DNA from: a virus
Direction: 5' to 3' (one strand)
DNA length: 64,000 nt
IMG/VR virus record: IMGVR_UViG_3300037808_001133
Coordinates: 4,601 to 68,600 of that record
In this document: positions 4,065 through 57,883 of the stretch, piece after piece
Layout of the letters: each line of letters starts with the position of its first letter
Numbering within the stretch: the stretch's first letter is position 1
Notes under the pieces: model-generated
The model's input: only the letters and a program-made list of their open reading frames with translations
Database searches by the model: none
What the model was told of the DNA's origin: nothing
Position numbers and translations under genes: made by a program

Positions 4065-5810
4065 ATGCCGAAGGACGTAACGGCAACCCTGATTCAAAAC
4101 GGGGTTGACCCAGAGCAGGCCGAACTGATCGCTGAGGCCATAGTGCTTTCGCGTCAGAAGCGCGGAGGGGTCCTGTTCGAAGACGCGGCGCTCAGGACCG
4201 TGCGCCGCTCCTTCTTCGCGGGGCGTCGTGGTGACGACCAGTACCGCGAGTTCCAAAGCCTTGTCACTTCGGAACTCAAGTCGCTCACGCCTGGCGAGCT
4301 TGCCTTCGGCGACATACCAGACGCGGCACGTGAACAGTATTCGGCGTTCTGCTGGAATATGTACAAGGGCCGACAGGAGCGATACCTCGACCGGCACGAG
4401 GACGAGGACCCAGCCGAGTTCCTCAACCGCCCGCAAAAGCGAACGCTCAACGTCACCAAAATGGTGATCAACATTCTCTCGCAGCTGTACCACTCGTCCC
4501 CGATCCGCGACCACAAAGAGGAGGAGGTGGACCCCGGTGACGCCGAGACCGTTAAGGACAACGCGGCAAAGAACCACCTCGACGACCGGCTTGACGAAAT
4601 CTGGTCTGGCGAATTGTTCAACCGGTCCATGCTTGAGATCGACCGGCTGTGCCGACTGCTCGGGACCGTCGCGGTGCGGCCTATGTACGACACCGAGCAG
4701 CCCGGGTCGATCCGGCTCTGGCTATTCATGAGCCACCAACTGCGAGTGATCCCAGACCCGGTCGCGCCTTGGAAGCCAGCGGTTGTGATTGAGCGGGCTC
4801 ACCCGTTCGGTCGCCAGAAGTCGGTGACGATTTGGACGAAGGACTTCTTCGTTGACCTTCGCCGCGACAACCAGGTGACGGTGGAGCCGCACGGGCTTGG
4901 CAGGATTCCTCACGTGTTCTGCCGCGACGAGCTTTCTTACACCTCGTTCTTCGTCGAGGGGCGCGGCCGCGTTCTCTGCAACCCCAACGCAATCCTGAAC
5001 AACGACCTCTCCGACTTGGAAGAGGTCAAGCAAATGCAAGGGTTCTCCCTGCTTGAGCTAACGAACCCGGTCGAGGACACGCAGCGAATCGGTCCACGCG
5101 AGGCGGTCACGTTCCGACCGACCGACAACACGACACCGTTCGGTGCAAAGTTCGTTGCGCCCAACGCGCCGCTCGCGGAGCTCCGCGCCGACTGCTCAGA
5201 ACAGATCGACCAAATCCTTGAGGTCAACGGCGTCCCGGCCGCAGCTGTCGGCGCGGACATTAACCGGCGCTCGCTGTCGGGCGCGGCTATCCGTGCGGGT
5301 ATGCAGCCGATCATTGCGGACAACAAGAAGCGCGAGTCTCTCTTCAAGCCGCTTGAGCACGACCTTGCCGACTCAATGCTGCGTATGGTCCGTCGTCACG
5401 AGCCGACCTTTGCCTACGACCCAGACACGCAGCGCCCCGAGTTCACGATCTTCTACCAGACCCTAGAGTTCCCAGCCGACACCCGCGACAAGGTCGTGAA
5501 GGACGACTTCGACATTGCCCAGGGGATCAACACGCCAGCCGGTATCCTGCGACGCGACGAGCCCGAGAAGTTCCCCACGCACGAGGAGGCCGTTCTTCAG
5601 TGGCAGAAGAACCTCGCCGAGCTTCGGACGGCTGGCTTCAGTCCTGGCGACGACGAGCAGGACCCGAACCTCCGCGCAAGCTTCGGTGGCTTCCAACCGA
5701 CGGTTGAAGGTCGCGAACCGCAGGAGGAGTACACGTCCAGGGAACTCATTGAGGACCTCGACGTCTTCTCAAACAAGGAGACGGCCCGGGTTCAGGCGAG
5801 CGGACTGTAG
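4065..5810 (+). CDS. portal protein (SPP1 gp6-like)
   Basis: LNVTKMVIN, HGLGRIPHV and LSGAAIR motifs; size and position. Confidence 0.85.
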   Translation: MPKDVTATLIQNGVDPEQAELIAEAIVLSRQKRGGVLFEDAALRTVRRSFFAGRRGDDQYREFQSLVTSELKSLTPGELAFGDIPDAAREQYSAFCWNMYKGRQERYLDRHEDEDPAEFLNRPQKRTLNVTKMVINILSQLYHSSPIRDHKEEEVDPGDAETVKDNAAKNHLDDRLDEIWSGELFNRSMLEIDRLCRLLGTVAVRPMYDTEQPGSIRLWLFMSHQLRVIPDPVAPWKPAVVIERAHPFGRQKSVTIWTKDFFVDLRRDNQVTVEPHGLGRIPHVFCRDELSYTSFFVEGRGRVLCNPNAILNNDLSDLEEVKQMQGFSLLELTNPVEDTQRIGPREAVTFRPTDNTTPFGAKFVAPNAPLAELRADCSEQIDQILEVNGVPAAAVGADINRRSLSGAAIRAGMQPIIADNKKRESLFKPLEHDLADSMLRMVRRHEPTFAYDPDTQRPEFTIFYQTLEFPADTRDKVVKDDFDIAQGINTPAGILRRDEPEKFPTHEEAVLQWQKNLAELRTAGFSPGDDEQDPNLRASFGGFQPTVEGREPQEEYTSRELIEDLDVFSNKETARVQASGL

Positions 5811-5813
5811 GGC

Positions 5814-7439
5814 GTGGCTACCGACCCCGTCAGCTACATGGACGCGGCAGACGACTTCCTCAGCAAAATGGAAGCGTCGAAGCTCGTGGCGAAGGCCGAA
5901 CTTGAGACGGTCCGAAAGGGTCTCGTTCGCGACATTAAACGCGAGGCGAAGGACACAGTGAAGTCGCTTCAGACAACGCGTATCGGTGCGGCAAAGGTCT
6001 TGATTCCGAACGCTTCGAACCTCAAGAAGATTGGGCTCTCGTCGGAGAGGGTCCGATCGAAAATGCAATCCTTCCGACTCAACTACCTCAACCGAGACCA
6101 GGTGACTGCGCTGACCGACGCGGGCACTATGCCCGAGGACACGTCGAAGTTCATTCGCCACTCGCGCCGGCTGGCACGGCACGCTCGCGAGTTCCTCACC
6201 AAGATCAAAGAGGAGTCCCCCGAGCTACAGGAAGAAATCGACGCGACCCTTCTTCAAATGGAGGACAACGATATGGACCTCCTGAAGCTGGAGGTCAAGT
6301 CCATGACGCGCATGAAGGAGACCATGCTTCGCGCAGTCAACGGCCAGAAGGAGCGCGGGCAAGTGCTCAAGGAGATTGAGGACTGGGACTTGAACAAGCA
6401 GCTGTTCAACCTCTCGATCCTCGAGCACCCAGACGCCGTCGTCAGGAACCTCTTCGCGAACGCGTCGACCCGGCAGGGCTCAGCGACCGCTACCAAGACC
6501 AGCGAGATCCCGAAGCGGTCGCACGTCTTTGTCGGGCTCCCGCCGCAGGCCGCGGCGAAGCTCAAGCCGAACAGCAGGACCGCCGACTTCTCCTGGCGAC
6601 TGTTCGATCAGAAGACGCTGAACGAGAAGTTCAAGAACCTCCCAAGCAAGCAGGGAAGCCCTTCGTCGTGGCGTGGGCTCGGGCTGGACTACAACACGAA
6701 GGAGTTCTACTTGCCGGTGCCTCCGAGCATGGTCACAGGGCTCACGCCCCTCGTGACGGCGCGTCGGGCACAAACGCTTGGCGCTGGCGCAGCGGCCAGA
6801 GCAGCCGTTATGCCGCCAGACCGAATCAAGGGCGACGACCAGCTGAACCCGGTAAGCGGCGCGGCTGGGGACTCGGCTGGCGTATGGCTTGCCCGAGAGC
6901 TTCCAGAGCAGAAGGGTTTTCTCGCGAAGGCAAACGACAAAGAGATTGAGTCGATCCTCGACTACAAGGCGGGCGACGCCCTTGAGATCAACGACCTCCT
7001 CCGTGCCGACCGTGCCGACCTGCTCGGCAAGCGGAAGCAGGGAATGGTCGAGTCGCTCGACGGACTCCTCGACAAGACGGCAACGTCGAAGGACCTGGTT
7101 GTCTACCGGCAGAGCACTCACCCGGCGTTCAAGAAGCTCAAGGCCGACGACACGTTCAACGAGAAGGGCTATAGCAGTACCAGCCTCATTCGGGACCACA
7201 AGAAGTTCGGCGAGGCGGCAGAGGAAATCTTTGACGCGAAGGCCGTCCAGCTGGTGATCAATGTGCCGAAGGGTTCGAAGGGTGCTTACCTTGACTTCGT
7301 CGAGGAAGCGTCCAACCGCGAGGACGCTGAGTTCCTTCTTCCGCGTGGCGTGAAATACACAGTCACGAAGGTCGAGCAGCGAAACGACCGCAAGCAGGTG
7401 TTCGTTGACATTGAGCCCCTCGACACTTCTGAAAGGTAG
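5814..7439 (+). CDS. minor head (MuF-position) protein with C-terminal VIP2/exoenzyme-type ADP-ribosyltransferase
   Basis: Directly after portal; Y...INDLLR, VVYR, GYSSTS and DAEFLLPRG (R-S-E clade). Confidence 0.8.
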   Translation: MATDPVSYMDAADDFLSKMEASKLVAKAELETVRKGLVRDIKREAKDTVKSLQTTRIGAAKVLIPNASNLKKIGLSSERVRSKMQSFRLNYLNRDQVTALTDAGTMPEDTSKFIRHSRRLARHAREFLTKIKEESPELQEEIDATLLQMEDNDMDLLKLEVKSMTRMKETMLRAVNGQKERGQVLKEIEDWDLNKQLFNLSILEHPDAVVRNLFANASTRQGSATATKTSEIPKRSHVFVGLPPQAAAKLKPNSRTADFSWRLFDQKTLNEKFKNLPSKQGSPSSWRGLGLDYNTKEFYLPVPPSMVTGLTPLVTARRAQTLGAGAAARAAVMPPDRIKGDDQLNPVSGAAGDSAGVWLARELPEQKGFLAKANDKEIESILDYKAGDALEINDLLRADRADLLGKRKQGMVESLDGLLDKTATSKDLVVYRQSTHPAFKKLKADDTFNEKGYSSTSLIRDHKKFGEAAEEIFDAKAVQLVINVPKGSKGAYLDFVEEASNREDAEFLLPRGVKYTVTKVEQRNDRKQVFVDIEPLDTSER

Positions 7440-39129: not shown

Positions 39130-39334
39130 CGACCCAGCGTTCCGCGACCCCGTAAGAGGGGACAGGATCAGGAGGGGCCCGAACGAGTACCGCGTGACTG
39201 GGCGCGGCGTTGCCCGCTCAGTCCGGTTCGTCCGGTTGACCGATTCAGGGCACAGCCTGGTCGGGCAGAAGTCGATTCAGTGCTGGCGACGGCTAATCGA
39301 GACCGGCACAGTCGTTGAGCACGGCGGTCGCTAG
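39110..39334 (+). CDS. hypothetical protein
   Basis: Last plus-arm ORF; its stop overlaps the convergent HNH stop (CTAG). Confidence 0.45.
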   Translation: MSGLSHSDPAFRDPVRGDRIRRGPNEYRVTGRGVARSVRFVRLTDSGHSLVGQKSIQCWRRLIETGTVVEHGGR

Positions 39335-39840
39335 ACGACGTCCTTCCAGAGCGTCCCGTCTTCGATCTTCGCAATCGTCGTCCGGCTGACCTTGAACAAC
39401 GCAGCGAGACGCGTCTTCGTTGCGCCAGCCCGAAGGTAGCGCTTGATCGACGAAGCTTGTTCCCTCGTGAGCGCCTGCCCTTTCTTCCTGCCACCGCGAG
39501 CCCGCTGATTGCGAACGGCGTCGGCCCTGTTCTCCTTTCGCGTTCCCCAACGGAGATTCGACAGCTTGTTGTTCAGCGGGTCGTCGTCCCAGTGGAGTCC
39601 CTCTTGGCCCTCGGGACACTTCCCGCTGAAGGCAAGGAGGACGAGTCGGTGCAGCAGTCGCGGGTGCGTCTTGTCGTTGCGCCGCAGCGAGACCCGCTGG
39701 TGACCCGACCCGCACGGCTGCGGCTTGAGACACTTGTTTGTCCTGCCCGAGTGAACCCTTCCGAGGTTCGATACCAAGTAACCCGGGAATCCCGGGACCT
39801 GCCTCCATTGCTCGTGACCGAACGCGCTCATGCTCCTCAC
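39331..39840 (-). CDS. NUMOD4-HNH homing endonuclease with C-terminal HTH
   Basis: EQWRQVPGFPGYLVSNLGRV, HRLVLLAF and HWDDDPLNNKLSNLRWGT..EN. Confidence 0.9.
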   Translation of the reverse strand: MRSMSAFGHEQWRQVPGFPGYLVSNLGRVHSGRTNKCLKPQPCGSGHQRVSLRRNDKTHPRLLHRLVLLAFSGKCPEGQEGLHWDDDPLNNKLSNLRWGTRKENRADAVRNQRARGGRKKGQALTREQASSIKRYLRAGATKTRLAALFKVSRTTIAKIEDGTLWKDVV

Positions 39841-39852
39841 GGTACAGCACTA

Positions 39853-40125
39853 GGCTCCAGCCACAAACGCTCCTTCGGTGATCATGCCGACCGAGCGTCT
39901 GTCTATGTTGGCTGGAGCCAGTCCTACAAAGACAGATCGCCGAAGGCGACTGAGCCTGACGAAGTCAGGTCTGTCTTTTCATTCGTCTGTACAGCAAGCG
40001 ACCCCGACTACAAGAGCCGAGGCCGTTACTGCGCACTCGAGCGGAGCTCGAGGGCCGCGGTCATAACGAAGGCGAAAGGGCCGCAGGCCCGGTTCTGCGA
40101 AGCAGAATTTGCCTTCGTCATGACC
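39853..40125. other. structured non-coding element: two three-way junctions plus hairpins with C-GNA-G triloops
   Basis: Multiple perfect inverted repeats, detailed in findings. Confidence 0.7.
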
Positions 40126-40244
40126 TTCTACGTGTGGACTTGGACCAACCTCAGAGGGCGAAACGCACCTCCTCAAACAGTAGCCACCGACGTCCTGTAA
40201 GAGAGGGAAGAATACCAACCTCGTCTGACAGAACGGGGTGAACC

Positions 40245-40826
40245 CTACGAACCCCGTGCAAGCGCCATGAACTCAGCGCGGGCTTCCGGCTTCGTGCGAA
40301 AGACACCGAGCGCACAGGACGTCACCATTCGCGCACCGGCCTTGCCTACGCCCCTGCAAGACATACACGCATGGGTTGCCTCAATCACCACGCAGACGCC
40401 GCCAGCGCTAAGGGCGTCGTTCAAGGTCGTCGCGATCTGAGTGGTCATGCGCTCTTGAACTTGCAGCCGCCGTGCGAAGCAATCGACAAGTCGCGCAAGC
40501 TTGGAGAGCCCGACTATCTTGTCACCAGGGAGGTAGCCGACAGTCGCGAACCCGGTGAACGGAAGCATGTGGTGCTCGCAAAGCGACGAGAAGGGAATGT
40601 CCCGAAGGATCACGACCTCGTCGTGCTTCTCGTCGAACTGCGTGCTCAGGATTTTCTCCGGGTCCTCGTGGTAACCACGGGTCATTTCGATCATGGCCTT
40701 CACGACCCGCTTCGGAGTGTCGTTCAGACCTTCGCGGTCCGGGTCTGGGTCTAGCAGTTCCAGTAGGCAACTGACACCCTCTTGGGCCTTCGTCTTGAGC
40801 ATTGCTCGTCGTGTTTCTTCGTTCAT
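40245..40826 (-). CDS. folE: GTP cyclohydrolase I
   Basis: REGLNDTPKRV, SLCEHHMLPF, GLSKLAR, RLQVQE and H.CM..RG. Confidence 0.97.
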   Translation of the reverse strand: MNEETRRAMLKTKAQEGVSCLLELLDPDPDREGLNDTPKRVVKAMIEMTRGYHEDPEKILSTQFDEKHDEVVILRDIPFSSLCEHHMLPFTGFATVGYLPGDKIVGLSKLARLVDCFARRLQVQERMTTQIATTLNDALSAGGVCVVIEATHACMSCRGVGKAGARMVTSCALGVFRTKPEARAEFMALARGS

Positions 40827-40835
40827 GTTTGCAGC

Positions 40836-41525
40836 CTACCCGAGCGCCGGGATCACGACCGAGTCGGGGTCGAGCGAATACTCGGCGAGGTCTTTCACGT
40901 CAGCGATCCTGAACGCTTCGATTCGCTCGACGCACGTCCCGCACTTGCCGCAATGCTTCTCGCCGCCCTCGTAGCAAGTCCAGGTCGAAGCCCAGTCCAC
41001 GCCGAGCTTGTCGCCGAGCCGGGCAATGTCGGCCTTGCTCTTGTTGACGAACGGTCGAAGGATTTGCTTCGGGTCGAAGTGGCACAGCTTCGCCGCCTCG
41101 TTCATTGCGTCGGCGAACTCGGGTCGGCAGTCAGGATAGACGGCGTGGTCGCCAGCGTGCGCAGCGTAGGCGACAGCGTCATAGCCGAGCGCAACGCAGC
41201 GGCCCAACGCGACAGACAGAAGGATCATGTTTCGGTTCGGGACGACCGTTGCCTTCATGGACTCCTCGGCGTAGTGCCCGTGCGGGACCGGAACGCTGTC
41301 GTCGGTGAGCGCCGAGCCCCCGAGTATGTCGCGGAGCGCCGTGAGGTCCGCGACGACGTGCGTGACGCCGAGCTTGTCGCAAGTGGCCTTCGCAAAGCCG
41401 AGTTCCTTCTTGTGCCGCTGTCCGTAGTCAATGGAGATCGCGGAGACCAGGTGGCCCTCGTCGCGCAGCTGGTAGAGAAGGGCGGTGGAGTCCATGCCAC
41501 CTGATAGGACGCAAAGAATTTTCAC
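40836..41525 (-). CDS. queC: 7-cyano-7-deazaguanine synthase
   Basis: SGGMDS, YGQRH, VPNRN, YPDCR and TWTCY...CGKCGTC. Confidence 0.97.
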   Translation of the reverse strand: MKILCVLSGGMDSTALLYQLRDEGHLVSAISIDYGQRHKKELGFAKATCDKLGVTHVVADLTALRDILGGSALTDDSVPVPHGHYAEESMKATVVPNRNMILLSVALGRCVALGYDAVAYAAHAGDHAVYPDCRPEFADAMNEAAKLCHFDPKQILRPFVNKSKADIARLGDKLGVDWASTWTCYEGGEKHCGKCGTCVERIEAFRIADVKDLAEYSLDPDSVVIPALG

Positions 41526-42514
41526 GGTGTCGCCTCCTTGGCGATCGGTTGATTTGGAAGGAGCGGGAACGTGTAGCGTTCAAACGTCTCGGCGAGCCGG
41601 CGCTGGAATGCTGGCCTGTCCTTCTTCATGAGGATTCGAAGGCCCTCACAATAACTGCGAGCCTCCTGGTAGTCGAACAGTTCCCCGTTCTTCGCGTGCA
41701 GGACCGAGGCAATCTCCTTGATCCAAGACTCGGACCCCGCGAAGAAGTAAGCCTGCCCGCGCTCCGCGGCATGAACGTGAAGGTTCATGTACGCGTTGAC
41801 GCCCATGAGTGACGCGAGTCCGGTGCGGCCTGTATACGCCGCCGGGTCCTGAAGGATTTTAGTCGTGACGTTACAGCGGCTCGCGTGGCGCAGAACGTAG
41901 GGCGCGAGCTTCTTGGCCTTGCTCATTCGACCGCGAGCCTTGTCGTAGACCATGAAGTAACCGGAGAGCCGACCGTGACCGAACGAGTGGGAGTCAACGG
42001 TCGCGATCGGCAGCTGGAACATTTCGGGGAGGCGCGTGTAGCCGAGCGCGTGAACCTTCGCGTTGCCGCCCGTCACCTTCGCGATTTGCTGGTATCGGTG
42101 GTGAGCGTACTGCGGTCGCGCTCCGACGCACCCGCCAACGCAGACGCGCCCGTCGAGGTAGGTGAGGAGCTTCGGGACAATGTCGAAGCTCATGCCGGGA
42201 GAGAACACGGGCATTGGAGTCAGCCCGTCCTGATACAGCTGGTCAAGCTGCATGGCGGTCACGGCTGGCCTGGCTGGGTCGTCGAGCGAGACGTATGCCC
42301 AGACGCGTCCGTGAACTTGCTGCATGGCCTTTGAGTAGCTCTTGAAGCTAATCGGCGGCACCTTCCCCTTGAGCTCGCTCACGAAGTTCGTGTAGCCGCC
42401 CGAGTCAATCAGGAGGTTCGCGACGTTGGTGATCGAGAGCATGTCCTCCCAGTCGCGAGTCCCGGGCTTGCAATGGGCAATCGTGTAGAGAAGGTTGAGT
42501 CGGGGAATCCTCAT
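41522..42514 (-). CDS. TGT-fold DpdA-like transglycosylase, paralogue B
   Basis: IDSGGYT, LDD, PVF, VGG, VHALG and VDS motifs; ATGA-coupled start at 42514. Confidence 0.75.
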   Translation of the reverse strand: MRIPRLNLLYTIAHCKPGTRDWEDMLSITNVANLLIDSGGYTNFVSELKGKVPPISFKSYSKAMQQVHGRVWAYVSLDDPARPAVTAMQLDQLYQDGLTPMPVFSPGMSFDIVPKLLTYLDGRVCVGGCVGARPQYAHHRYQQIAKVTGGNAKVHALGYTRLPEMFQLPIATVDSHSFGHGRLSGYFMVYDKARGRMSKAKKLAPYVLRHASRCNVTTKILQDPAAYTGRTGLASLMGVNAYMNLHVHAAERGQAYFFAGSESWIKEIASVLHAKNGELFDYQEARSYCEGLRILMKKDRPAFQRRLAETFERYTFPLLPNQPIAKEATP

Positions 42515-43443
42515 GCCTTCAGAAGCTCCGCTAGCGCAGCCCGTTCGGCTGGCTTGCCTGTCCCGAGGTCCAAGAGGTCTTGCCTGATCTTGCATGCGAG
42601 CGGGTAGTCAAACGTCTCACCGGTCTTCGCCGCCCTCACGGCTGCGATCACGCGGAGGTAGTTCTCCTCAAGCGCGAAGAAGAACATGGGGCCCGCGCTG
42701 CGCGACTCGCAGAAGTTGTGAATGTTCAGGAACGCGTTCACGGTCATGGTCGAGACGACGCTCATTTGCCCCTTCGTGTTCTCGCGCATGGCGTCGGTCG
42801 TCACCTTGCACTTCGCGGCGTGCGCGAGCATTGGGGGAGACCATTTGCCGAGCTTCTCGCTCAGCATGGTCCCGCGCCGCTTGTCGAACTTGCAGGCGGT
42901 GCCGAACCTCCCGCCTGACTGGTAAGAGGTGGAGTCACAGCTTGCGATCGGGACGCGGAACATATCCGGCAGGCGCGTGTAGCCAAGCGCGTGAACCTTG
43001 ACCGAGCCCTTCGTGAGCTTCGCGATCTTCTGATACCGGTGGTGAGCGTACTGGGGCCGCGCACCAACGCAGCCCCCGACGCACAGCCACCCTTTCCCCT
43101 GCTCGGCAAGGCGCGGGACCTCGGCGAACGACATACCCGGAGAGAACACCGGCATGACGTCGAGGTTGATCTTCGCGAAGTAGTCGAGGTTCTCCTTCGT
43201 CACCTTCGCGTTGCCCGGGTCGTCGAGGGCAATGACCTTCCACGCCGCGCCACCGAGCGCACGGTGGCGCTCGACGTACTGGTCCCGGGTCAGGAGCGGC
43301 TCCCTGCCCCGGAGTTGCTGCGTGAAGTTCGTGTAGCCACCCGAGTCGATCAGCAGCCGGGCGTGCGGCGCTATCGTGAGGGCCGTCTCCCACGGCGGCG
43401 TCCCCGGTTTCAGGAACGCGAGACTGTAGAGGAAGTTGAGCAC
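42511..43443 (-). CDS. TGT-fold DpdA-like transglycosylase, paralogue A
   Basis: IDSGGYT, LDD, PVF, VGG, VHALG and CDSTSY motifs; adjacent to queC/folE. Confidence 0.78.
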   Translation of the reverse strand: MLNFLYSLAFLKPGTPPWETALTIAPHARLLIDSGGYTNFTQQLRGREPLLTRDQYVERHRALGGAAWKVIALDDPGNAKVTKENLDYFAKINLDVMPVFSPGMSFAEVPRLAEQGKGWLCVGGCVGARPQYAHHRYQKIAKLTKGSVKVHALGYTRLPDMFRVPIASCDSTSYQSGGRFGTACKFDKRRGTMLSEKLGKWSPPMLAHAAKCKVTTDAMRENTKGQMSVVSTMTVNAFLNIHNFCESRSAGPMFFFALEENYLRVIAAVRAAKTGETFDYPLACKIRQDLLDLGTGKPAERAALAELLKA

Positions 43444-44151: not shown

Positions 44152-44736
44152 TCAAGGGCGCCGCCTCTTGAATACGGAGGTGATCTTCGGCGCAACGCCT
44201 GGCGGTAGCGGCTCAGGCTTCGGCTTCGGCTTCGGCTTCGGCTTCGGTGGCGCCGGTCTCGTTGCGCGGGCGCTGTCGAACGCCTTGCGAAGCTCCCTGA
44301 CTGACTTGGTCGCTGCGCGGGCTGCTGGACCAAGACCGCTCATGAACGTGTCGCCCTTGACCTCGACGTAGCCCTTCCGAAGCTTTGACTTGACCAGCTT
44401 GGCAATCTCCAGCTGCGCACGGATCGTTGACCCCTCGTCCTTCTCTATGAGCCTTCCCTCGGTCCCGATTGGTCCGTAGCGAACGACGCGAACCGAACCG
44501 TTTCGCAGGACCTCCCAGAACTTGTTTGACCCGCCCCGGGTGCATTCGAATCGCCTCACGTTGCTACGCTCCTTCAGCGGTGGACCAGCCCTCGGGTCTC
44601 CGAAGGGCGAACCCGACGGAGCGCCGGGCGTAGTATTCCGACCGCAGCTGACGCAGAACGTGTCGTCCCTTTGCTGGCTCGTTGCCATGCAGATCCAATA
44701 GCGCCGGGACTGTTGCTTGTGCGGGCAAGCGCTCAC
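44152..44736 (-). CDS. WGR-domain protein with PK-repeat tail
   Basis: SNKFWEV...VRYGPIGTEG...KLVKSKLRKGYVE. Confidence 0.8.
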   Translation of the reverse strand: MSACPHKQQSRRYWICMATSQQRDDTFCVSCGRNTTPGAPSGSPFGDPRAGPPLKERSNVRRFECTRGGSNKFWEVLRNGSVRVVRYGPIGTEGRLIEKDEGSTIRAQLEIAKLVKSKLRKGYVEVKGDTFMSGLGPAARAATKSVRELRKAFDSARATRPAPPKPKPKPKPKPEPLPPGVAPKITSVFKRRRP

Positions 44737-46886
44737 GACTTCTTCTGCTCAAGGAGCACGAGGTCGGCGCATGCCAAGTGGGCGCGTCTTGTGTTCTTGT
44801 CTTTCTCGGAGACCCACTCGTCGCCAGCCGTGACGGGCTTCAGGCAAACCTCACAGCAGCGATATCCCTTCTTCGTCTTCCGCTGCTTCCTGACCACGTT
44901 CATATCCGCCTTCAGCGTCCACCGAAGCTTTCGTTCCTCCTCGGCCTTCTCGTTCATTGCTTCCGTGACCAGCGGCTCGGGTGGCTCCTCGCTCGGGCGG
45001 TAGCGAACGCACGCGCAGTAGTCCGCGCCGCAGACCGCGTCGGTTTCGTTGTGCTGCTCACGCTTGTGTCCGCAGGCGCACGTCGCAATCACAAGCGGGA
45101 CCATGGGCCCGCCGAGAACCGTCCCGTGTGGAAGGTGCTCGCCACAGATTAGGCAACCGTCCTTCTCGTTCCACTCGCCGTGACCACAAACGAACCCCGG
45201 GCACTCCTCGCAGCGAGCGCACTTCTTCGTCCTGAAGTCGTGCTCCATGCCGACGTGACCGCACTTGCAAACGCGTTCGGCTGGGAGTCCACCGACGCCC
45301 TCCGAGCACGGGTGGCAGTTGCAGTCGAGCGGGCACCGGCACGCCTCGTCCTCGTCCCCGGTGTGCTCGCAGACACCCGCGATCGCGCCGAGCGCTGCGT
45401 CGAGGTTCGCCTTGCCCTGGTCAAGCTGTGACGTGTCAACGGGCGGAAACCAACCGCGACGACTCGTCGGGTGAAGACTCGGCCCGCACCACTCGCCCGC
45501 ACGCATGACCGCCTCTATGACCTCGCGGCATGGCGAACACGTGATCCCTGGAAGCTGGTCGCGCAGCTGCTGGTCTCCGTCAAGCGTGTACTTGTAGACG
45601 CGCCGCGACGTAGAGGGACACGGCGAACACGCGAACGACTCGGTGCACGGGGGAACCCAAGCACCCGAGCAATGAACAACCTTCTCGGCCTTTTCGATTG
45701 CGTCGTCTACCGCCTTGGCTCTTGCCTCCGGTCCTGCTTTCCTGAGCGCCTCCGCGTGCTCGTCGCGCTCGCGTTGCTCCGCTGTCGGTTTGTTCGCGTC
45801 GGCGAGCATGGCGTCACCAATGGGGCACAAGAGGTGGTGACCCGAGTTCGGCGCGTCGCTCGACTCGGGGTCCATGCCCTCGCAGACACCACAGGTGAAC
45901 TCCTCGCCACGCGAGCGAATCGGTTTGACGTCTACCTCGCGCTTGTCCACCGTCGCACCGCACGAGCAGTCCATGGATTTCTCAGCGCCCGACTGAAGCC
46001 ATACCGTCTCGCAGAGCAAACACTCGTGCCGAAGGACCAGCCCGCCCGTATGAAGCTTGCAGAACACGACTGGGCCGTCGCCTTGGTAGACCAACGCCTC
46101 CGAGCACGTCCTAATCCCGCACTCGCCCTCATACCCGGGGTTCGCGGTACAACCTGGGGATCGACAAACGGCACCCTTCTCTTCCTCCGTTTTGACGTTG
46201 CCGCACCCGTTGCAGCGGTCAGCGTCCGGTTCCTCGGTCTTCGGGGCTGGCGAAATGACCTTTTGTGTCCCGACCGGCAGTCCTTCGAAGTTCGCAGCTG
46301 GAAGCTCGCCTCCGATTGCTTCGCCGACCGACTTGTGACCGCACTCCGCAATGTTATCGGCGGGGCACCCTAGGACCGTGCAGGGCGTCCTGACGCGCTG
46401 CTCAAACGAAAGCTTGACGTCGTCGGCGCTTTTCAACTCGCGGCTTGGTAGTCGCCAGAGCTTGTCTCCAATCAGGTAGTCGTCGCCGACCTTCACCGGT
46501 CGCAGCTGTTGCCACCAATCGCACGGCATGAGACCACCCGGTGCTTTGATCGGTTCGGCCTGTTCGAACGCGGCAAGCTTCGGGCCCTCCGGTGTTCTCC
46601 AGAGGTAGACGGCTGCTCGTTGGTCTTCAAGCCAGTAGTACTCGGGCTCCTGTCCTGCGCGAGCCTTGAGCGCTTCAACGAACGCGACAACCGAGGTGCC
46701 GCTCTTTGTGTAACCCGCGACGATCGCTCCGAGTTCGATACCTCTCTGGGCAAGGTAGCTGACTGCTGCCTCCCAGAACTGGACACCGTCCTGGTAGTGC
46801 TCGAGGAGCGCTTCTAGCTCCTCGCGTGGATTGGTCATGCCGAGGATTTGCTTAAGCCTCTCCCTGACGTTTGGTGTGGCGGTCAC
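44733..46886 (-). CDS. large cysteine-rich multi-zinc-finger protein
   Basis: 717 aa with many CxxC and CxCGH..H motifs; coupled to the next gene. Confidence 0.7.
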   Translation of the reverse strand: MTATPNVRERLKQILGMTNPREELEALLEHYQDGVQFWEAAVSYLAQRGIELGAIVAGYTKSGTSVVAFVEALKARAGQEPEYYWLEDQRAAVYLWRTPEGPKLAAFEQAEPIKAPGGLMPCDWWQQLRPVKVGDDYLIGDKLWRLPSRELKSADDVKLSFEQRVRTPCTVLGCPADNIAECGHKSVGEAIGGELPAANFEGLPVGTQKVISPAPKTEEPDADRCNGCGNVKTEEEKGAVCRSPGCTANPGYEGECGIRTCSEALVYQGDGPVVFCKLHTGGLVLRHECLLCETVWLQSGAEKSMDCSCGATVDKREVDVKPIRSRGEEFTCGVCEGMDPESSDAPNSGHHLLCPIGDAMLADANKPTAEQRERDEHAEALRKAGPEARAKAVDDAIEKAEKVVHCSGAWVPPCTESFACSPCPSTSRRVYKYTLDGDQQLRDQLPGITCSPCREVIEAVMRAGEWCGPSLHPTSRRGWFPPVDTSQLDQGKANLDAALGAIAGVCEHTGDEDEACRCPLDCNCHPCSEGVGGLPAERVCKCGHVGMEHDFRTKKCARCEECPGFVCGHGEWNEKDGCLICGEHLPHGTVLGGPMVPLVIATCACGHKREQHNETDAVCGADYCACVRYRPSEEPPEPLVTEAMNEKAEEERKLRWTLKADMNVVRKQRKTKKGYRCCEVCLKPVTAGDEWVSEKDKNTRRAHLACADLVLLEQKKS

Positions 46887-47176: not shown

Positions 47177-47231
47177 GTTTCCCTCCTTGGGTTCGCCGCC
47201 CAGCCTAAGCCGGGCGGCGGTGTTGTTCAGA

Positions 47232-49679: not shown

Positions 49680-51058
49680 GCCGGGGTGAACCGCGTGAAC
49701 GTCTTCTCAAAGCGAAGTCTGACCATGCCGGTTGGACCGTTCCTGTTCTTCGCCACGTTCAGGAGCGCAAGCTCGTTGAGTTCAGGCTTGTCGGGGAAGT
49801 AGTACTCGGGTCGGTGAAGCAGCATGATCACGTCGGCGTCTTGCTCGACCTGCCCGCTGTCTCGTAGGTCGGCCATGATCGGTTTCTTGTCGCTCCGGTC
49901 CTCGACCTTCCGGTTCAACTGCGCGAGCACGCACAGGTGAATGTTCAGTTGCCTGGCGTAGCGCTTGAGCATGATTGAGACCTCCGTGATTTCTGCGTAG
50001 CGACCACCGCCCCGTGTGTTCTCCGTTCCCGAGAGCAGCTGCATGTAATCGACGAAGACGATTCGGCATTGGTGCCGCTGGACCATTCGCTCAAGCACGC
50101 GTCCGAGGTCCCGCACCGAAGCGACCACGCCGTCGAAGACGCCCAGGCGTTCGCCGGTCTGTTCAAGCCACATGATCCCGTCGACGGTCCTGCCGTATTC
50201 CTGTTTCGCTGTCTCGCTGTCGAAGCGACCCGGTTCGGTCTCGCCGAAGACCCCGCGTCGAATCTTGGTCGTGTCCACGCCGCCGAACGAACCGGTCGCG
50301 TTGCACGCCAGCTGGAGGCGATCCATTTCCAAGCTCGCGATCCCGACGCGCTCGTTCCGGTTGAGCATTGCGGCTGCGAGGCAAAGCGCGAGGCTCGTCT
50401 TTCCCATGCTCGGTCGCGCTGCAAGGATCGACATTTCGCGGGGCCTGAAACACTGGACGACTTCGTCAAGGTCTCGCCAGCCCGACACGACACCCGGGTC
50501 ACGGTTGGGATCGTTGACGTGGTCCAGCAGTTCCTTCGCGAGCACGTCCCCGGAGTAAATCTTCTGACTTGCCCGGTCGGCGGTCACGGCGAAGAGGAGC
50601 TCATGCGCCTTGTCGAATGTGTCGGCGACCTTCCCATTGCTCCAGCCAAGCTCAACGATCCTCGCGCCGGCTTCGATCAGTTGCCTCTTCCGCGAGAGGG
50701 CCATAACGATCTTCGCGTAGTAGTTCACCTGCGCAGCGGTCGGGACGGTGTCTACCTCAAGCACGACGAGGTCGGTCTTTTGGTCGTCGCTCAGTGCCGA
50801 GCCTTGCCGCTCCATGTCGTTCGTGACCGCAAGGGCGTCCACGGGAATCCGCCGCTCACGAAGAGAGGCCATGCTTCCCCAGACTGCCGAGAGCCAGGGG
50901 CTGTAGAAATCTTTCGGGGCGAGCGGGGTCTCGAGTTCGTCCAGCCCCTTGTATCGATCGAAGCATGCAGCGAGCACGTTTCGTTCGGCGTCTTTGTTGT
51001 TCGGTGGCGTTCGTCGGAGGAGCGGGTTAGGTGCCTCTCCTGTTGTCCATGATTCCAT
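49676..51058 (-). CDS. dnaB: replicative DNA helicase
   Basis: AARPSMGKT, SLEM, DYMQL, AQLNR, LRDSGQVEQDAD and KNRNGPTG. Confidence 0.97.
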   Translation of the reverse strand: MESWTTGEAPNPLLRRTPPNNKDAERNVLAACFDRYKGLDELETPLAPKDFYSPWLSAVWGSMASLRERRIPVDALAVTNDMERQGSALSDDQKTDLVVLEVDTVPTAAQVNYYAKIVMALSRKRQLIEAGARIVELGWSNGKVADTFDKAHELLFAVTADRASQKIYSGDVLAKELLDHVNDPNRDPGVVSGWRDLDEVVQCFRPREMSILAARPSMGKTSLALCLAAAMLNRNERVGIASLEMDRLQLACNATGSFGGVDTTKIRRGVFGETEPGRFDSETAKQEYGRTVDGIMWLEQTGERLGVFDGVVASVRDLGRVLERMVQRHQCRIVFVDYMQLLSGTENTRGGGRYAEITEVSIMLKRYARQLNIHLCVLAQLNRKVEDRSDKKPIMADLRDSGQVEQDADVIMLLHRPEYYFPDKPELNELALLNVAKNRNGPTGMVRLRFEKTFTRFTPA

Positions 51059-52031
51059 TGGGGTCCTTCAGTTGAGTTGGCGTCGGCTTGTTCCAGTTGG
51101 TCGGCGTGTACAGCGGGCGGGTCGAGGGCGGCGGTATCGAGAGACTCGCTGTCGCGTCCTCCTCGACCTCTTCACCCCAACCGCCTTCGCTGAGCCATGT
51201 GCGAAGGCCGCGGCGGAATAATTCCGGGTGACGCTTCGCCAGGACGGCGGCACCCTTTGCGCCGTCGAGAATCGCTGGGAAATCGTCGACCCCGACGGAC
51301 CCTTTGGTGATCAGTTCCTTTAGCCACTTCTCGATCGCGAGCGGTTGCGGGACCACCCGTGGGGCGCCCCTATTGGTCGGGTGCGGGTAGATCGCCCTAA
51401 GTCCATTGATCAGGTCTGAGCTTGACAGCGAGGGAGCGCCTGTACGGCCCTGTTTCCCGGTTGACCGCGTCCCAGGACGGATCTGCTGCGAACGTGCCGT
51501 CTGCGCTACCGCTCGCAGCGTCCGGGGGTCTCCTGGTCGCGGGACGCTGGAGGGTGGCGGCTCAACATGGATTGGGAGGGTCTCGCTTGAGCTAGGCTCA
51601 GCTGAACCTAGCTCAAGTGTCCCCCTAGTTACTGTCTGGTTCATAATAAGGTGGTCGCCCGAACCTAGCTCAAGTGAGCCGCGATTAGGTTCGGTTGAAC
51701 GTGCTTCAGTTGAACGTGCTTCAGTTGAACTACGCTCAACTGACAGCGTGTAGAGGTGCCGCCTCCAGTCTTTGCCAGGGCGACGCGTTATCGAGATCCA
51801 CCCGGTCTTCTTCGCAAGCTTGAGGTGCTTGGAGACCGACGCTTCGGACAGGCCGGTTTCGATCGCGAGCAGGTCGAGGCCCGGGTAGCACGACCCGTCG
51901 TCGCGGCTCATTCGTAGCGAGAGCACGAGCAAGACCAAACGCGTCGTCGAAGACGCGGGACCAGCTGGTGAAGCGACTGCTCGTCGCCAGGCAAACAAAT
52001 CGACTGTCACGGTTCCCCGGTTTGTCGTCAC
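51027..52031 (-). CDS. replication initiator (lambda O-like, N-terminal wHTH)
   Basis: CYPGLDLLAIETGLSEASVSKHLK..K.GWI; upstream of dnaB; internal repeats. Confidence 0.78.
   Translation of the reverse strand: MTTNRGTVTVDLFAWRRAVASPAGPASSTTRLVLLVLSLRMSRDDGSCYPGLDLLAIETGLSEASVSKHLKLAKKTGWISITRRPGKDWRRHLYTLSVERSSTEARSTEARSTEPNRGSLELGSGDHLIMNQTVTRGTLELGSAEPSSSETLPIHVEPPPSSVPRPGDPRTLRAVAQTARSQQIRPGTRSTGKQGRTGAPSLSSSDLINGLRAIYPHPTNRGAPRVVPQPLAIEKWLKELITKGSVGVDDFPAILDGAKGAAVLAKRHPELFRRGLRTWLSEGGWGEEVEEDATASLSIPPPSTRPLYTPTNWNKPTPTQLKDPNGIMDNRRGT
51586..51740. repeat. iteron-like direct and inverted repeats (putative origin)
   Basis: GAACCTAGCTCAAGTG at 51604 and 51661, inverted copy at 51586, tandem GTTGAACGTGCTTCA at 51694 and 51709. 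Confidence 0.7.
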
Positions 52032-52216
52032 CCGTTTGCTACAAGAGAGTCGTGCCGGTGACGTGTGGCGCGTCTCTTGGTACTCCTTCAGTTGGGAGCG
52101 ACCCCTGGGCTAACCAGGGGTCGCTTGCTGTTGTACAGACTCGCTCCAACAAACCCAGCGAAATAGAGGTTGGGAGTAACTGGATTGCCCGGTGTAAACG
52201 GGCTGTGGAGTTGCAC

Positions 52217-52869: not shown

Positions 52870-52986
52870 TGGGTTCTCCTTCGGTTGGGTGTAGACACCT
52901 ATCGGTCGTTGCGTGGCGAGACCTTTAGGGGTTTCAAATTTTATTTGTGAGCACCCGCCCGCACGGCGCAGGCGGGTGCTCGCGTG

Positions 52987-53208
52987 CTACCGCTCGTTGA
53001 TACCCGGGTTTCTCTCGGCGTCGGTCAGGCACCCGTCGCCGCAGTCTTCGCCGGTCGAGATCCAGCCCGCGCCCTCGCGAGTGATCAGTCCGTCGCGCTC
53101 CAGGGCGACGAGTGCCTCCTGAAAGTCCAACGCGTCAAAGATTTGAGGCACGGAGCTTTCCTCGACGCGCTTGAGCAGGGCGTCCTTGATTGCTTCCAGT
53201 CCGCTCAT
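52987..53208 (-). CDS. small protein, winged-helix-like
   Basis: ATGA-coupled to queE; LVALERDGLI. Confidence 0.5.
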   Translation of the reverse strand: MSGLEAIKDALLKRVEESSVPQIFDALDFQEALVALERDGLITREGAGWISTGEDCGDGCLTDAERNPGINER

Positions 53209-53867
53209 TCGACGTCCCACGCCTTGTGCTGCTGGACCGAGAGTCTCCAAGCGGGGTTCTCCTTGCACCAATTGATCGCGCACCAAAGGTTCGAAGAGGA
53301 GTCGGAGTCCTGCGGTGCCCAAGCAGGCGAAGCGAACCGGTGAAGCTCGGCGGCATGCCGAGATTCAATCCCGCGATCGTCTGGCGGGTTCCCAGGCGAC
53401 ACGACGCAGCGGACCTCGTCTGCTCGGCGAAGCCGAGTCGGCCCCTTCGGCGAACACGAAATCCAATCAGCCGCGTCAAGCACCTCGTCGCCAGACGTTC
53501 CGTTCGTCTCGACCGCCGTGTACCAGCCGTCACCACGAAGCGCGTAGAGCAGTTCGCGGTCAAGCTGAAGCGTCGGTTCCCCGCCGCTAATCACGACAGC
53601 CCGATTCGCGTGAGGGCGGCTCCCCCAAAGCACGGCCAAGGTTCGAAGGATCTCGGGAATGCCGAGGCGCTCCCCGCCCTTGAAGTCGGTGTCGCACATA
53701 AACCCGACGTCAATCTCAAGGCCCTCCATTTTGCGGTCGAGTTCCTCGGCGTCGACGCACTGAAGGTTGCAGCCCGCGAACCGCAAGAACAGCGTCACGG
53801 TTCCGGCGCGGTGCCCTTCGCCCTGAAGCGTCGGTCCGAAAATCTTCTTCACCGAATAGGTCTTCAC
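53205..53867 (-). CDS. queE: 7-carboxy-7-deazaguanine synthase (radical SAM)
   Basis: TLQGEG, FLRFAGCNL, CDTDF, SGGEP.LQ, ETNG, SPK and WRLS.Q.HK; GTGA-coupled start at 53867. Confidence 0.93.
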   Translation of the reverse strand: MKTYSVKKIFGPTLQGEGHRAGTVTLFLRFAGCNLQCVDAEELDRKMEGLEIDVGFMCDTDFKGGERLGIPEILRTLAVLWGSRPHANRAVVISGGEPTLQLDRELLYALRGDGWYTAVETNGTSGDEVLDAADWISCSPKGPTRLRRADEVRCVVSPGNPPDDRGIESRHAAELHRFASPAWAPQDSDSSSNLWCAINWCKENPAWRLSVQQHKAWDVE

Positions 53868-54589
53868 GACTGTCTCGCATTCATTGTGAGTCCCAGTGCC
53901 TCGGCAAGCTTCGGGTAGATACTCTCCTCGGCGAGCTTTGCGGCGAACTCGCATGCGTCCCCCGAAGGGTGGTAGATCGGCGAGTAGTTGATCTCAAGGC
54001 CAAGGCCCAGGCTGTATCGCTCCTCTAGCTCGTCGGACTTTGACCACAGGTAGGGAGGCGGCCGCCGGCCAGGCCAGCTATGCCCTTCGAACTTTGCTCG
54101 AGCAGGCCACGTCGAGGTTGTCGGGTCAACGATCGTTCCCGACCCGTCGCTGTGCCGCAAAGCGAGCCAGCAATGAAGCTCGGGCATGAGCTCGCGAACC
54201 GTTCCGGTCTCCTCGCAGTAGGCTTCCCGCTTAACGCGTTTCTCACCCTGCCACTCAAAGCCGAACAACGGTGCGTCGGCGTCCTTGTGAGGGTCGGTCT
54301 CTGGCGTATGCCTCGGCCAGTAACACGTCCCGGCTTGAAGCATGAACTGCAACCCGTGTCGCTTTGCTCCAAGCAGCTGGAGCGCGGCTGCGTGAAACAA
54401 ACAGTCGAAGCCTGGCTTGACTGACTCGCTCCAGACGCTCGCGTAGAGAATGAGCGCGTCCTTCACGAGCTTGCGCTGCTTCGTTCGCGAGAGCACTTGG
54501 TCGTTCAACTCGTTCGCGGCAGCTGCGGGGCGTTGCCCGATCACCGCTCGCCTCCGAACCCTCGCGTTGAATTGCTTCTTGCCGCTCAT
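53864..54589 (-). CDS. putative transglutaminase/papain-fold enzyme
   Basis: DCLFHA...AG...HCWL...IVDPT gives a candidate Cys-His-Asp triad; coupled to queD and queE. Confidence 0.55.
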   Translation of the reverse strand: MSGKKQFNARVRRRAVIGQRPAAAANELNDQVLSRTKQRKLVKDALILYASVWSESVKPGFDCLFHAAALQLLGAKRHGLQFMLQAGTCYWPRHTPETDPHKDADAPLFGFEWQGEKRVKREAYCEETGTVRELMPELHCWLALRHSDGSGTIVDPTTSTWPARAKFEGHSWPGRRPPPYLWSKSDELEERYSLGLGLEINYSPIYHPSGDACEFAAKLAEESIYPKLAEALGLTMNARQS

Positions 54590-55053
54590 AGCGAAGCCTC
54601 GGCTTTGCAGTTCGGCGTCTCCCAGACAAGAACCTTCACGACGTCAACGCCCGCGCCAGCGAGTAGGTCTGGGCAAATCACGTCGAGAAGATAGCTCGCC
54701 ATGTTCTCGGCGGTCGGGTTGCACGGCATGAGGTAGAGCTTTTGAAGAGTCCCAACCTCATTCCGACCAGGGCGCGGCACGACCTCAAGGCGACCGACTG
54801 CTTTCGCGAGCGGGTCAACGTCGTTCATGATCATTCCGTGGTCCCACTTCTCGTCCAGCCAGCCGCCGATCTTTTCCTTGAGCACGCTGAAGTCGATCGT
54901 GCGACCGACCTCGTCTAGCTCGTCCGCTTGTGCAGTCACCTCGACAACGTAGCGGTGACCGTGGAGGTGAGCGCACTTGCTCTCGTGCTTGTAGACCCGG
55001 TGGCCCGCGTCGAACTCCAGCTTCCTCGTGCAAGTAACTTTCGTGTCCTTCAT
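54586..55053 (-). CDS. queD: 6-carboxytetrahydropterin synthase
   Basis: FDAGHR...C..LHGHRY, DF..LK, DH, PTAEN and WET. Confidence 0.95.
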   Translation of the reverse strand: MKDTKVTCTRKLEFDAGHRVYKHESKCAHLHGHRYVVEVTAQADELDEVGRTIDFSVLKEKIGGWLDEKWDHGMIMNDVDPLAKAVGRLEVVPRPGRNEVGTLQKLYLMPCNPTAENMASYLLDVICPDLLAGAGVDVVKVLVWETPNCKAEASL

Positions 55054-57596: not shown

Positions 57597-57883
57597 ACGG
57601 TTCGTCCCTCCTTGGGACAGCAGTTGCAGTGGTGTTTGATCCAGTTGGGCCCGGGACGAACGTAGTCCCAGGTGAGTCCGACGGCGTCGCGTTCGTGAAG
57701 GCACTCGGCGACAGCTGGCGGCAAGAGAGTATCCGGGTCCTGACCGACAGGAACCCAGAAGTGAAAGTGAGCCCCATGGGGCCCCGCCAACGTAGCGTCG
57801 GCGAGGACCCCTGCGAACACGTCAGGGAACGGCGTGTCGCGGTAGTCACGAAAGGCGTGGCGAAGGTCGGCGTAAGAGGTCAC
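57593..57883 (-). CDS. hypothetical protein
   Basis: GGAGG SD; GTGA-coupled. Confidence 0.55.
   Translation of the reverse strand: MTSYADLRHAFRDYRDTPFPDVFAGVLADATLAGPHGAHFHFWVPVGQDPDTLLPPAVAECLHERDAVGLTWDYVRPGPNWIKHHCNCCPKEGRTV

Follow-up and report, generated by a model that had tools for sequence, protein, structure and literature searches.

A cluster of five C-GNA-G triloop hairpins between folE and an HNH gene of an uncultured marine phage as a candidate DNA-level fold

The spacer between a GTP cyclohydrolase I gene (folE) and an HNH endonuclease gene in the genome of an uncultured, marine, siphovirus-like tailed phage is packed with palindromes, and the question raised by this locus is whether they fold as DNA, fold as RNA or are selfish sequence without a function for the phage. 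The stretch analyzed, called the window here and used for all positions, has a length of 64 kb and corresponds to bases 4601–68600 of a linear 68.6-kb IMG/VR virus record (IMGVR_UViG_3300037808_001133), with a completeness of about 63% according to CheckV. A first-pass annotation made from the letters alone had described a branched non-coding element with five C-GNA-G triloops at 39853–40125 and had suggested folded single-stranded DNA (ssDNA) or a cruciform. The positions and sequences of all the elements it listed were reproduced, as was the location: the array fills most of a 404-nt spacer (39841–40244) between folE and the HNH gene, both of which lie on the minus strand.

Four units form the core of the array. 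Hairpin (a) (39853–39919, both strands) has perfect 11-bp outer arms (39853–39863/39909–39919), an internal loop and an inner helix of 6–10 bp. It is followed by Y-unit 1 (39928–39978, both strands), closed by a stem with an A-rich 5′ arm and a T-rich 3′ arm (39928–39936/39970–39978, 9 of 9 bp) and carrying, on the plus strand, two C-GAA-G mini-hairpins of 5 bp (39937–39949) and 6 bp (39955–39969) with a 5-nt linker between them. Hairpin Hc (40036–40052) is a perfect 7-bp hairpin with a C-GGA-G triloop as its plus-strand tip and GCGGAGC as its core heptamer. Finally, Y-unit 2 (40059–40125, both strands) has an 18-position closing stem (40059–40076/40108–40125) and two plus-strand mini-hairpins, one of 5 bp with a C-GCA-G tip (40078–40090) and one of 6 bp with a C-GAA-G tip (40093–40107). 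This closing stem had been described as 18 bp; its position stands, but only 16 of the 18 positions (89%) are Watson–Crick pairs, with one G·T and one A·C on the plus strand. Hairpin (a) and Y-unit 1 can also pair with each other, since 11 of 12 positions are complementary in 39872–39883/39935–39946 and 12 of 14 in 39898–39911/39923–39936; these pairings may represent mutually exclusive folds or chance by-products of the repeated words TCTGTCT and CCTTCG.

All five mini-hairpins, read on the plus strand, obey the rule known from DNA mini-hairpins, as had been claimed: a 3-nt loop with a 5′ G and a 3′ A, closed by a C:G pair (5/5). The loop is GAA in three cases, GGA in one and GCA in one, N being only A, G or C, and the stems of 5, 6, 7, 5 and 6 bp are all perfect. 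Two of the five tips carry the exact heptamer GCGNAGC (GCGGAGC and GCGAAGC), another two read CCGNAGG and the last one ACGAAGT. The CGAAG motif is unspecific by itself, since it occurs 382 times in the window.

Among GCNNNGC fragments, only those with GNA were described to form the mini-hairpin, with stability decreasing in the order N = A > G > C > T, and natural cases include the G4 ori-c, RSF1010 ssiA (CCGAAGG) and the N4 promoter (GCGGAGC) (PMC13037366). Compared with the d(GC-GNA-GC) DNA mini-hairpins of Hirao and Yoshizawa (PMC13037366), the five tips share the C:G closing pair, the loop that begins with G and ends with A, and N = A, G or C, with two exact heptamers; three of the tips differ in that CC/GG or AC/GT replaces the outer G:C pair. 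In phage N4, the C:G closing pair together with the 5′ G and 3′ A of the loop lets hairpins of 5–7 bp extrude at sub-physiological superhelicity, and single-stranded DNA-binding protein (SSB) melts the complementary hairpin while sparing the GNA hairpin (PMC4496689).

The array is dense and statistically exceptional, far beyond chance. The window holds 90 perfect triloop hairpins with stems of at least 5 bp, and five of them fall within 171 nt at the array. For the C-GNA-G type with stems of at least 5 bp, seven were found on the plus strand of the whole window, five of which are those of the array, and one on the minus strand. Triloops account for 5 of the 6 perfect hairpins of at least 5 bp in the spacer vs. 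90 of 499 in the window, and all 13 perfect stems of at least 8 bp in the window have loops of 4–8 nt. In 20,000 dinucleotide-preserving shuffles of the spacer, five triloop hairpins of any kind were obtained once; hairpins of the special type (C-GNA-G or C-TNC-G) never exceeded two, and five were obtained in 0 of 20,000. This type made up 24 of 702 triloop hairpins in 518,071 nt comprising 81 other loci and the whole record, in which no second cluster was found, and only three isolated hairpins of this type exist elsewhere in the record. The fold of 39841–40244 relative to shuffled sequences gave z values of −6.06 (plus) and −7.32 (minus) with DNA parameters, and −4.83 (plus) and −7.05 (minus) with RNA parameters.

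Folding with DNA parameters was scanned in 200-nt windows, on a grid of 639 windows plus four element-centred ones. On either strand, no other 200-nt window of the 64 kb was as structured as the array region: the top window of the regular grid, 39801–40000, had z values of −3.39 (plus) and −3.95 (minus), and the element-centred window 39926–40125 reached −3.96 (plus) and −5.24 (minus). The DNA parameters of ViennaRNA are not known to include a bonus for GNA loops. In addition, the core units have nearly equal energies on both strands. The minimum free energy (MFE) on the plus and minus strands was −40.2 and −42.7 for hairpin (a) (z −6.2 and −7.6), −23.3 and −23.7 for Y-unit 1, and −40.3 and −41.3 for Y-unit 2 (z −6.9 and −7.4). 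Wobble pairs are few, one or two per unit and about 3–4 in some 80 pairs of the core.

The loop rule, the scarcity of wobble pairs and the DNA-parameter scan on both strands favour reading the five-triloop core, that is, hairpin (a), Y-unit 1, Hc and Y-unit 2, as a DNA-level element in which nested palindromes are tuned to fold as ssDNA or as supercoil-extruded DNA. The probability of this reading is estimated at roughly 0.35; it is slightly favoured and ranked first, with a minor additional share for a hairpin-promoter sub-case of the N4 type. Loop chemistry is the strongest discriminator between DNA and RNA at this locus. Selection of the DNA form is inferred here, as is any specific role.

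In the proposed mechanism, the plus strand would become unpaired as a displaced strand, as the lagging-template strand or under negative supercoiling. The C-GNA-G tips would then nucleate, very fast, compact mini-hairpins resistant to SSB and nucleases, and would thereby fix a pair of hairpins and a pair of three-way junctions shaped like a Y (‘rabbit ear’), together flanking a single-stranded stretch of about 50 nt. The folded block could serve as a structure-specific landmark, for which the best-precedented role would be the initiation of complementary-strand synthesis at a priming site of the single-strand initiation (ssi) type; less favoured roles would be that of a hairpin promoter or of a site bound by a structure-specific protein. 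Two further hairpins in the same spacer, Hx and H0, which form only or better on the minus strand, would be ordinary RNA-level hairpins of a read-through message. The more specific proposal, that internal Y-shaped ssDNA folds built from GNA mini-hairpins act as a start signal for complementary-strand synthesis or hairpin transcription in a siphovirus-like marine phage, is unlikely.

Two groups of known systems come close to such an element. The Streptomyces telomere places two G:A-closed GCA hairpins between complementary flanks, in a ‘rabbit ear’ resembling parvovirus ends, whose loops are bound by the primase Tap (PMC4513846). Its 3′ overhang with Pal I–IV and the parvovirus ‘rabbit ears’ share with the array the packed palindromes and the Y of two sheared-G:A hairpins, of which the array has two (PMC4513846). 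Those folds are read by a primase or by terminal-protein machinery. In contrast to these ends, the array does not lie at a 3′ end, parts of it are spanned by contigs from other sequencing runs, the phage has no recognised Tap/Tpg-like proteins, and there is no sequence similarity. Since the array is internal, it does not belong to the telomere family. The ssi signals (G4 ori-c, RSF1010 ssiA/ssiB and plasmid ssi or single-strand origin (sso) sites) are likewise multi-hairpin ssDNA folds of about 100–300 nt, orientation-specific in those systems, and the ssiA tip CCGAAGG is the tip of the array hairpin 39937–39949 (PMC13037366). However, they are found at or next to origins with known primases, whereas the array is 11.5 kb from the likely origin and no primase was identified for it; this distance sets it apart from the documented ssi sites. 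By analogy, the array could work like a mini-hairpin-based single-strand DNA signal, as a candidate only.

Among double-stranded DNA phages, functional signals made of folded DNA are essentially confined, as far as is known, to N4-like viruses. If the DNA-level reading is true, the mini-hairpin rule would be used more widely, in a new phage group and in a nested Y form otherwise met at the ends of parvovirus genomes and Streptomyces chromosomes, and the array would offer a test object that is compact and simple to clone. Should it prove to be RNA or selfish DNA, it would be a curiosity of one orphan phage. Either way, the locus is a clean case for telling DNA-level from RNA-level structure by loop chemistry.

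A number of observations weigh against a DNA-level element, the first being its location. Iteron-like repeats, consisting of a 16-mer in three direct copies (spacing 57 and 66 nt) and one inverted copy plus a tandem 15-mer, are present at 51577–51743 inside the gene of an O-like initiator (51027–52031, minus strand), and this region is likely to be a lambda-type origin. It is also the most structured plus-strand stretch under RNA parameters (z −3.9). With these iterons 11.5 kb away in the O-like gene, the array is unlikely to be the main origin, and the origin role first suggested for it lost ground. A fork moving leftward from this putative origin would leave the minus strand exposed and not the plus strand, so the signal would have to act on a displaced plus strand, e.g., in rolling-circle or recombination-dependent synthesis, which is a weakness of the model. 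The array had also been placed near the junction of the two gene arms. The arms converge at 39130–39330, and the array is about 0.7 kb inside the right, minus-strand arm; the spacer around it is probably transcribed in the minus sense given the row of genes in the same sense. Convergent transcription nearby would produce positive supercoiling and disfavour extrusion.

The strand preference of the tips is not independent evidence either. Of the 15 C-GNA-G tips with stems of at least 4 bp that lie outside the array, 12 are antisense to the local genes (seven plus to one minus in the right arm, five minus to two plus in the left arm), and codon usage, with TTC preferred and GAA rare, is the likely cause; the plus orientation of the array tips matches this general bias. 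In addition, GAA and GCA rank with the commoner triloops of natural RNAs (PMC4615370), and a hairpin inside the array, Hx, folds on the minus strand only, with a strand asymmetry ranking first of 3762 windows of 51 nt. In the comparison of DNA with RNA parameters, a check proposed with the first-pass annotation, the array region came first on both strands with DNA parameters, whereas with RNA parameters the minus-strand window 39851–40050 ranked 1 of 1277 and the plus strand stayed outside the top 15. On balance, the idea of folded ssDNA or a cruciform is partly supported by the loop rule, the rank in the DNA scan and the strand symmetry of the core, and weakened by Hx and by the frequency of these triloops in RNA.

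Enzymes that might use such a fold did not appear. There was no PF00940 match indicating a T7-like RNA polymerase in the 68.6-kb record (about 63% complete), no Y1/HUH transposase of the REP-associated tyrosine transposase (RAYT) kind and no reverse transcriptase were found, and neither a primase nor a DNA polymerase was recognised in those right-arm proteins that were scanned. Finally, no homologue of the array was found in the collections searched.

Since Hx folds on the minus strand only, a structured read-through RNA stays a strong rival, possible though in our judgement somewhat doubtful. According to this explanation, the spacer is the inter-cistronic part of a folE-to-HNH message containing about eight hairpins, which would shield the 3′ end of the upstream message, serve as processing sites or weak terminators and sequester the ribosome-binding region of HNH, so that the homing endonuclease would be made sparingly. 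Both flanking genes are on the minus strand, and the spacer RNA folds at −197.3 kcal/mol on that strand vs. −171.5 on the plus strand, with the z values and first-ranked RNA window given above. Three helices absent from the first-pass annotation complete this fold. Hx (39991–40032, minus strand only) is an 18–19-bp hairpin with a 5-nt loop and five G·U pairs and has an energy of −26.1 (minus) vs. −9.9 (plus), the same stretch of about 50 nt being unpaired on the plus strand. H0 (40182–40244) is an irregular hairpin directly 3′ of the folE stop codon that uses four G·U pairs on the minus strand, where it forms somewhat better (−26.5 vs. −22.3). A small hairpin at 40154–40171 forms on both strands, with an AAA triloop on the plus strand and UUU on the minus strand. 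Overall, the minus strand of the spacer is nearly all paired, while the plus strand consists of two folded blocks around about 50 open bases. The HNH start is preceded by a single GGAG (39853–39856), which on the minus strand sits in the 3′ arm of hairpin (a). In each Y-unit, a hairpin is followed by a U-rich stretch, and a simple terminator scan flagged one hairpin of Y-unit 1 on each strand as a weak site.

The minus-strand tips, however, read C-UNC-G, which is not known as a stable RNA motif. It also falls outside the frequent RNA triloops listed by PMC4615370. What appear to be the ordinary intergenic hairpins of this phage are GC-rich, with stems of 11–14 bp and loops of 4–5 nt, have no U-tract and stand just before the ribosome-binding site of the next gene, as at the gene boundaries 52097–52125, ~52930–52975, ~57769–57784 and ~47195–47220. 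Hx, with its long stem and 5-nt loop, resembles them; the triloop units do not, since the ordinary ones have long stems and larger loops, and all five triloops (5/5) are unlike the other RNA-type hairpins of the phage. Terminator-like sites were at chance level in the region and in the genome (3, 21 and 19 vs. 1.9, 17.4 and 18.5 expected, respectively). Four HNH homologues, chosen among 1904 matching phage records, have upstream gaps of only about 0, 16, 40 and 72 nt, and a long leader is therefore not a trait of this endonuclease family. No Rfam family matched the spacer at its gathering score and none was convincing at E ≤ 10, the best hit (E 0.11) being an unrelated picornavirus element. 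The nearest analogue at the RNA level is the ‘hairpin rule’ of Mimiviridae, by which hairpins define the 3′ ends of mRNAs (PMC4402537) and which shares with the array, as do bacterial intrinsic terminators, palindromes after stop codons, some followed by U-rich sequence; it differs in that the array stacks eight units, tipped by triloops and with weak U-tracts, in a single spacer. Other RNA candidates were discarded: hammerhead or other ribozymes, a tRNA-like fold and a group I intron for lack of a model match, and a retron for lack of both a model match and a reverse transcriptase. ARAGORN detected no tRNA or tmRNA in the spacer.

An improbable explanation, and less so only than those that follow it here, is that selfish palindromic mini-elements accumulated in a spacer that tolerates them, perhaps moving together with the adjacent HNH gene and doing nothing for the phage, in the manner of repetitive extragenic palindromes (REP) and bacterial interspersed mosaic elements (BIME), miniature inverted-repeat transposable elements (MITE) or mitochondrial GC clusters. 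The stems are unrelated and have only the tip rule in common, the array adjoins a homing-endonuclease gene, and no homologue of its sequence came out of the searches, all of which would fit. REP and BIME are also short GC-rich palindromes at gene ends; however, they are dispersed, multi-copy and variable between strains, whereas the array is single, without presence/absence variation in the contigs examined. There is no dispersed family, only one copy in the 68.6-kb record beside the three isolated special hairpins mentioned above, and no contig skipping the array was found in four other seawater runs. The HNH gene is flanked by hairpin arms on a single side; on the other (39130–39330) the z value is −1.19 and there is no GNA tip. 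Reading of the flanks revealed no target-site duplications. Direct or inverted repeats flanking HNH plus spacer were judged chance occurrences. The HNH gene is like its neighbours in GC content and in GC content at third codon positions (GC3). The lack of a Y1/RAYT transposase also counts against mobility of this kind.

A plus-strand RNA is very unlikely. It would be small and non-coding or would form the extreme 3′ end of read-through transcripts from the late arm, and in it the GNA triloops would serve as stable RNA caps and the Y-units as terminators shielding the early arm from antisense transcription. The frequency of GAA and GCA among natural RNA triloops (PMC4615370), the T-rich run after the plus-strand hairpin of Y-unit 1 and the fold z of −4.83 are consistent with it. 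The plus strand is nevertheless not among the 15 most structured windows under RNA parameters, no promoter-like site was found, and a late-arm transcript would cross the whole HNH gene in antisense. Moreover, a separate 12-bp hairpin tipped by a GTT triloop (39196–39223) already stands at the true convergence point of the arms, 67 nt past the last plus-strand open reading frame (ORF) and 108 nt past the HNH stop, which may be a bidirectional terminator.

The likeness to N4 promoters noted in the first-pass annotation holds for the physics and not for the contacts. As in the early promoters of the N4 virion RNA polymerase (PMC4496689), stems are 5–7 bp, the loop is a 3-nt GNA, the hairpins are on the template strand (plus, for minus-sense transcription) and extrusion would obey the same principles, such extrusion and resistance to SSB being documented for hairpins of this kind (PMC4496689); two heptamers fit GC-G(A/G)A-GC, one of them identical to that of N4. 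The contact bases of N4, a central purine at −11, G at −10, G at −8 and C at +1 (PMC4496689), are all present only in 40093–40107 (1/5), while Hc fails at +1 and the other three at −8 or −11. Supercoil-extruded promoters of this type, from which a phage RNA polymerase would transcribe leftward into HNH, are thus scarcely credible here, and the array does not belong to the N4 promoter family, since four of the five hairpins fail at least one contact position and searches gave no T7-like polymerase domain, the longest ORF is the 1191-aa tape measure, the phage is siphovirus-like and not N4-like, and the hairpins are internal, clustered and nested in larger Y folds, whereas those of N4 are separate and at the genome end.

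Relatives of the locus were sought by sequence and through its neighbours. By blastn, the spacer matched nothing in 50,697 phage records at E ≤ 10 or in 72,556 plasmids at E ≤ 1, gave only chance matches of 12–16 nt in 81 loci (80 with FolE and one with HNH), and matched only itself, in single copy, in the 68.6-kb record; an exact spacer 30-mer was absent from IMG/VR. The 80 loci of FolE relatives, with identity of at most 67%, have no similar spacer. The HNH protein had one 30% match each in viral and metagenome contigs and less than 40% identity to homologues of cultured phages over most of its length. The neighbouring 357-aa DpdA-like protein led to no relatives, and neither did a search of IMG/VR and cultured phages with the 581-aa putative portal protein; taken together, FolE, HNH, the DpdA-like protein and the portal pointed to no close phage relative among cultured phages, IMG/VR and JGI metagenomes. 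In two cultured phages that carry deazaguanine clusters, no hairpin cluster is present.

A gene pair near the array was considered for a primase or terminal-protein role. A cysteine-rich 717-aa ORFan overlaps a 194-aa WGR-domain protein by 4 nt (44152–46886, minus strand), and neither member showed a domain recognisable as that of a primase or terminal protein, with no match to the Tap/Tpg or Rep families. The ORFan was rejected as a primase or Tap analogue, having no match in Pfam, PHROG, PDB sequences or the atlas. A word-indexed search returned only the protein itself, and 17 distant relatives were found among 1.84 billion representatives; of the 10 scanned against Pfam, nine were without a family and one (P0018) gave sub-threshold RAMA and DUF4357 hits. 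Its structural model had a predicted local distance difference test (pLDDT) score of 57, with no Foldseek match at E ≤ 0.001.

Regarding the source, the record recurs in near-identical form in 19 public sequencing runs, all seawater DNA and with no RNA run listed among them. Contigs from four of the seawater runs were identical to the stretch with 0–1 differences, and none had a joint. The array is internal, at 44.4–44.8 kb of the 68.6-kb record. The plus-strand arm contains the structural genes up to about 39129, including the major head protein, the 1191-aa tape measure and tail proteins, and the minus-strand arm the early and replication genes, with a DnaB-like helicase, the O-like initiator and a 7-deazaguanine cluster (queD, queE, two DpdA-like genes, queC and folE). 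The HNH gene (39331–39840, minus strand), the downstream flank of the spacer and last gene of this arm, encodes a homing-endonuclease-like protein of 169 aa with NUMOD4, HNH_3 and helix-turn-helix (HTH) domains. The upstream flank, folE (40245–40826, minus strand; PF01227, E 1.7e-71), is the last gene of the 7-deazaguanine cluster. The 7-deazaguanine DNA-modification genes are located at 40245–43443 and 53205–55053, and the two DpdA-like transglycosylase paralogues (357 and 310 aa) are adjacent with an 85-nt overlap and barely match the family profiles. In the opposite arm (4065–7439), the putative portal protein had no PHROG match either, and the 541-aa product of the gene after it has a C-terminal domain matching MuF/ADP-ribosyltransferase-like head-protein families.

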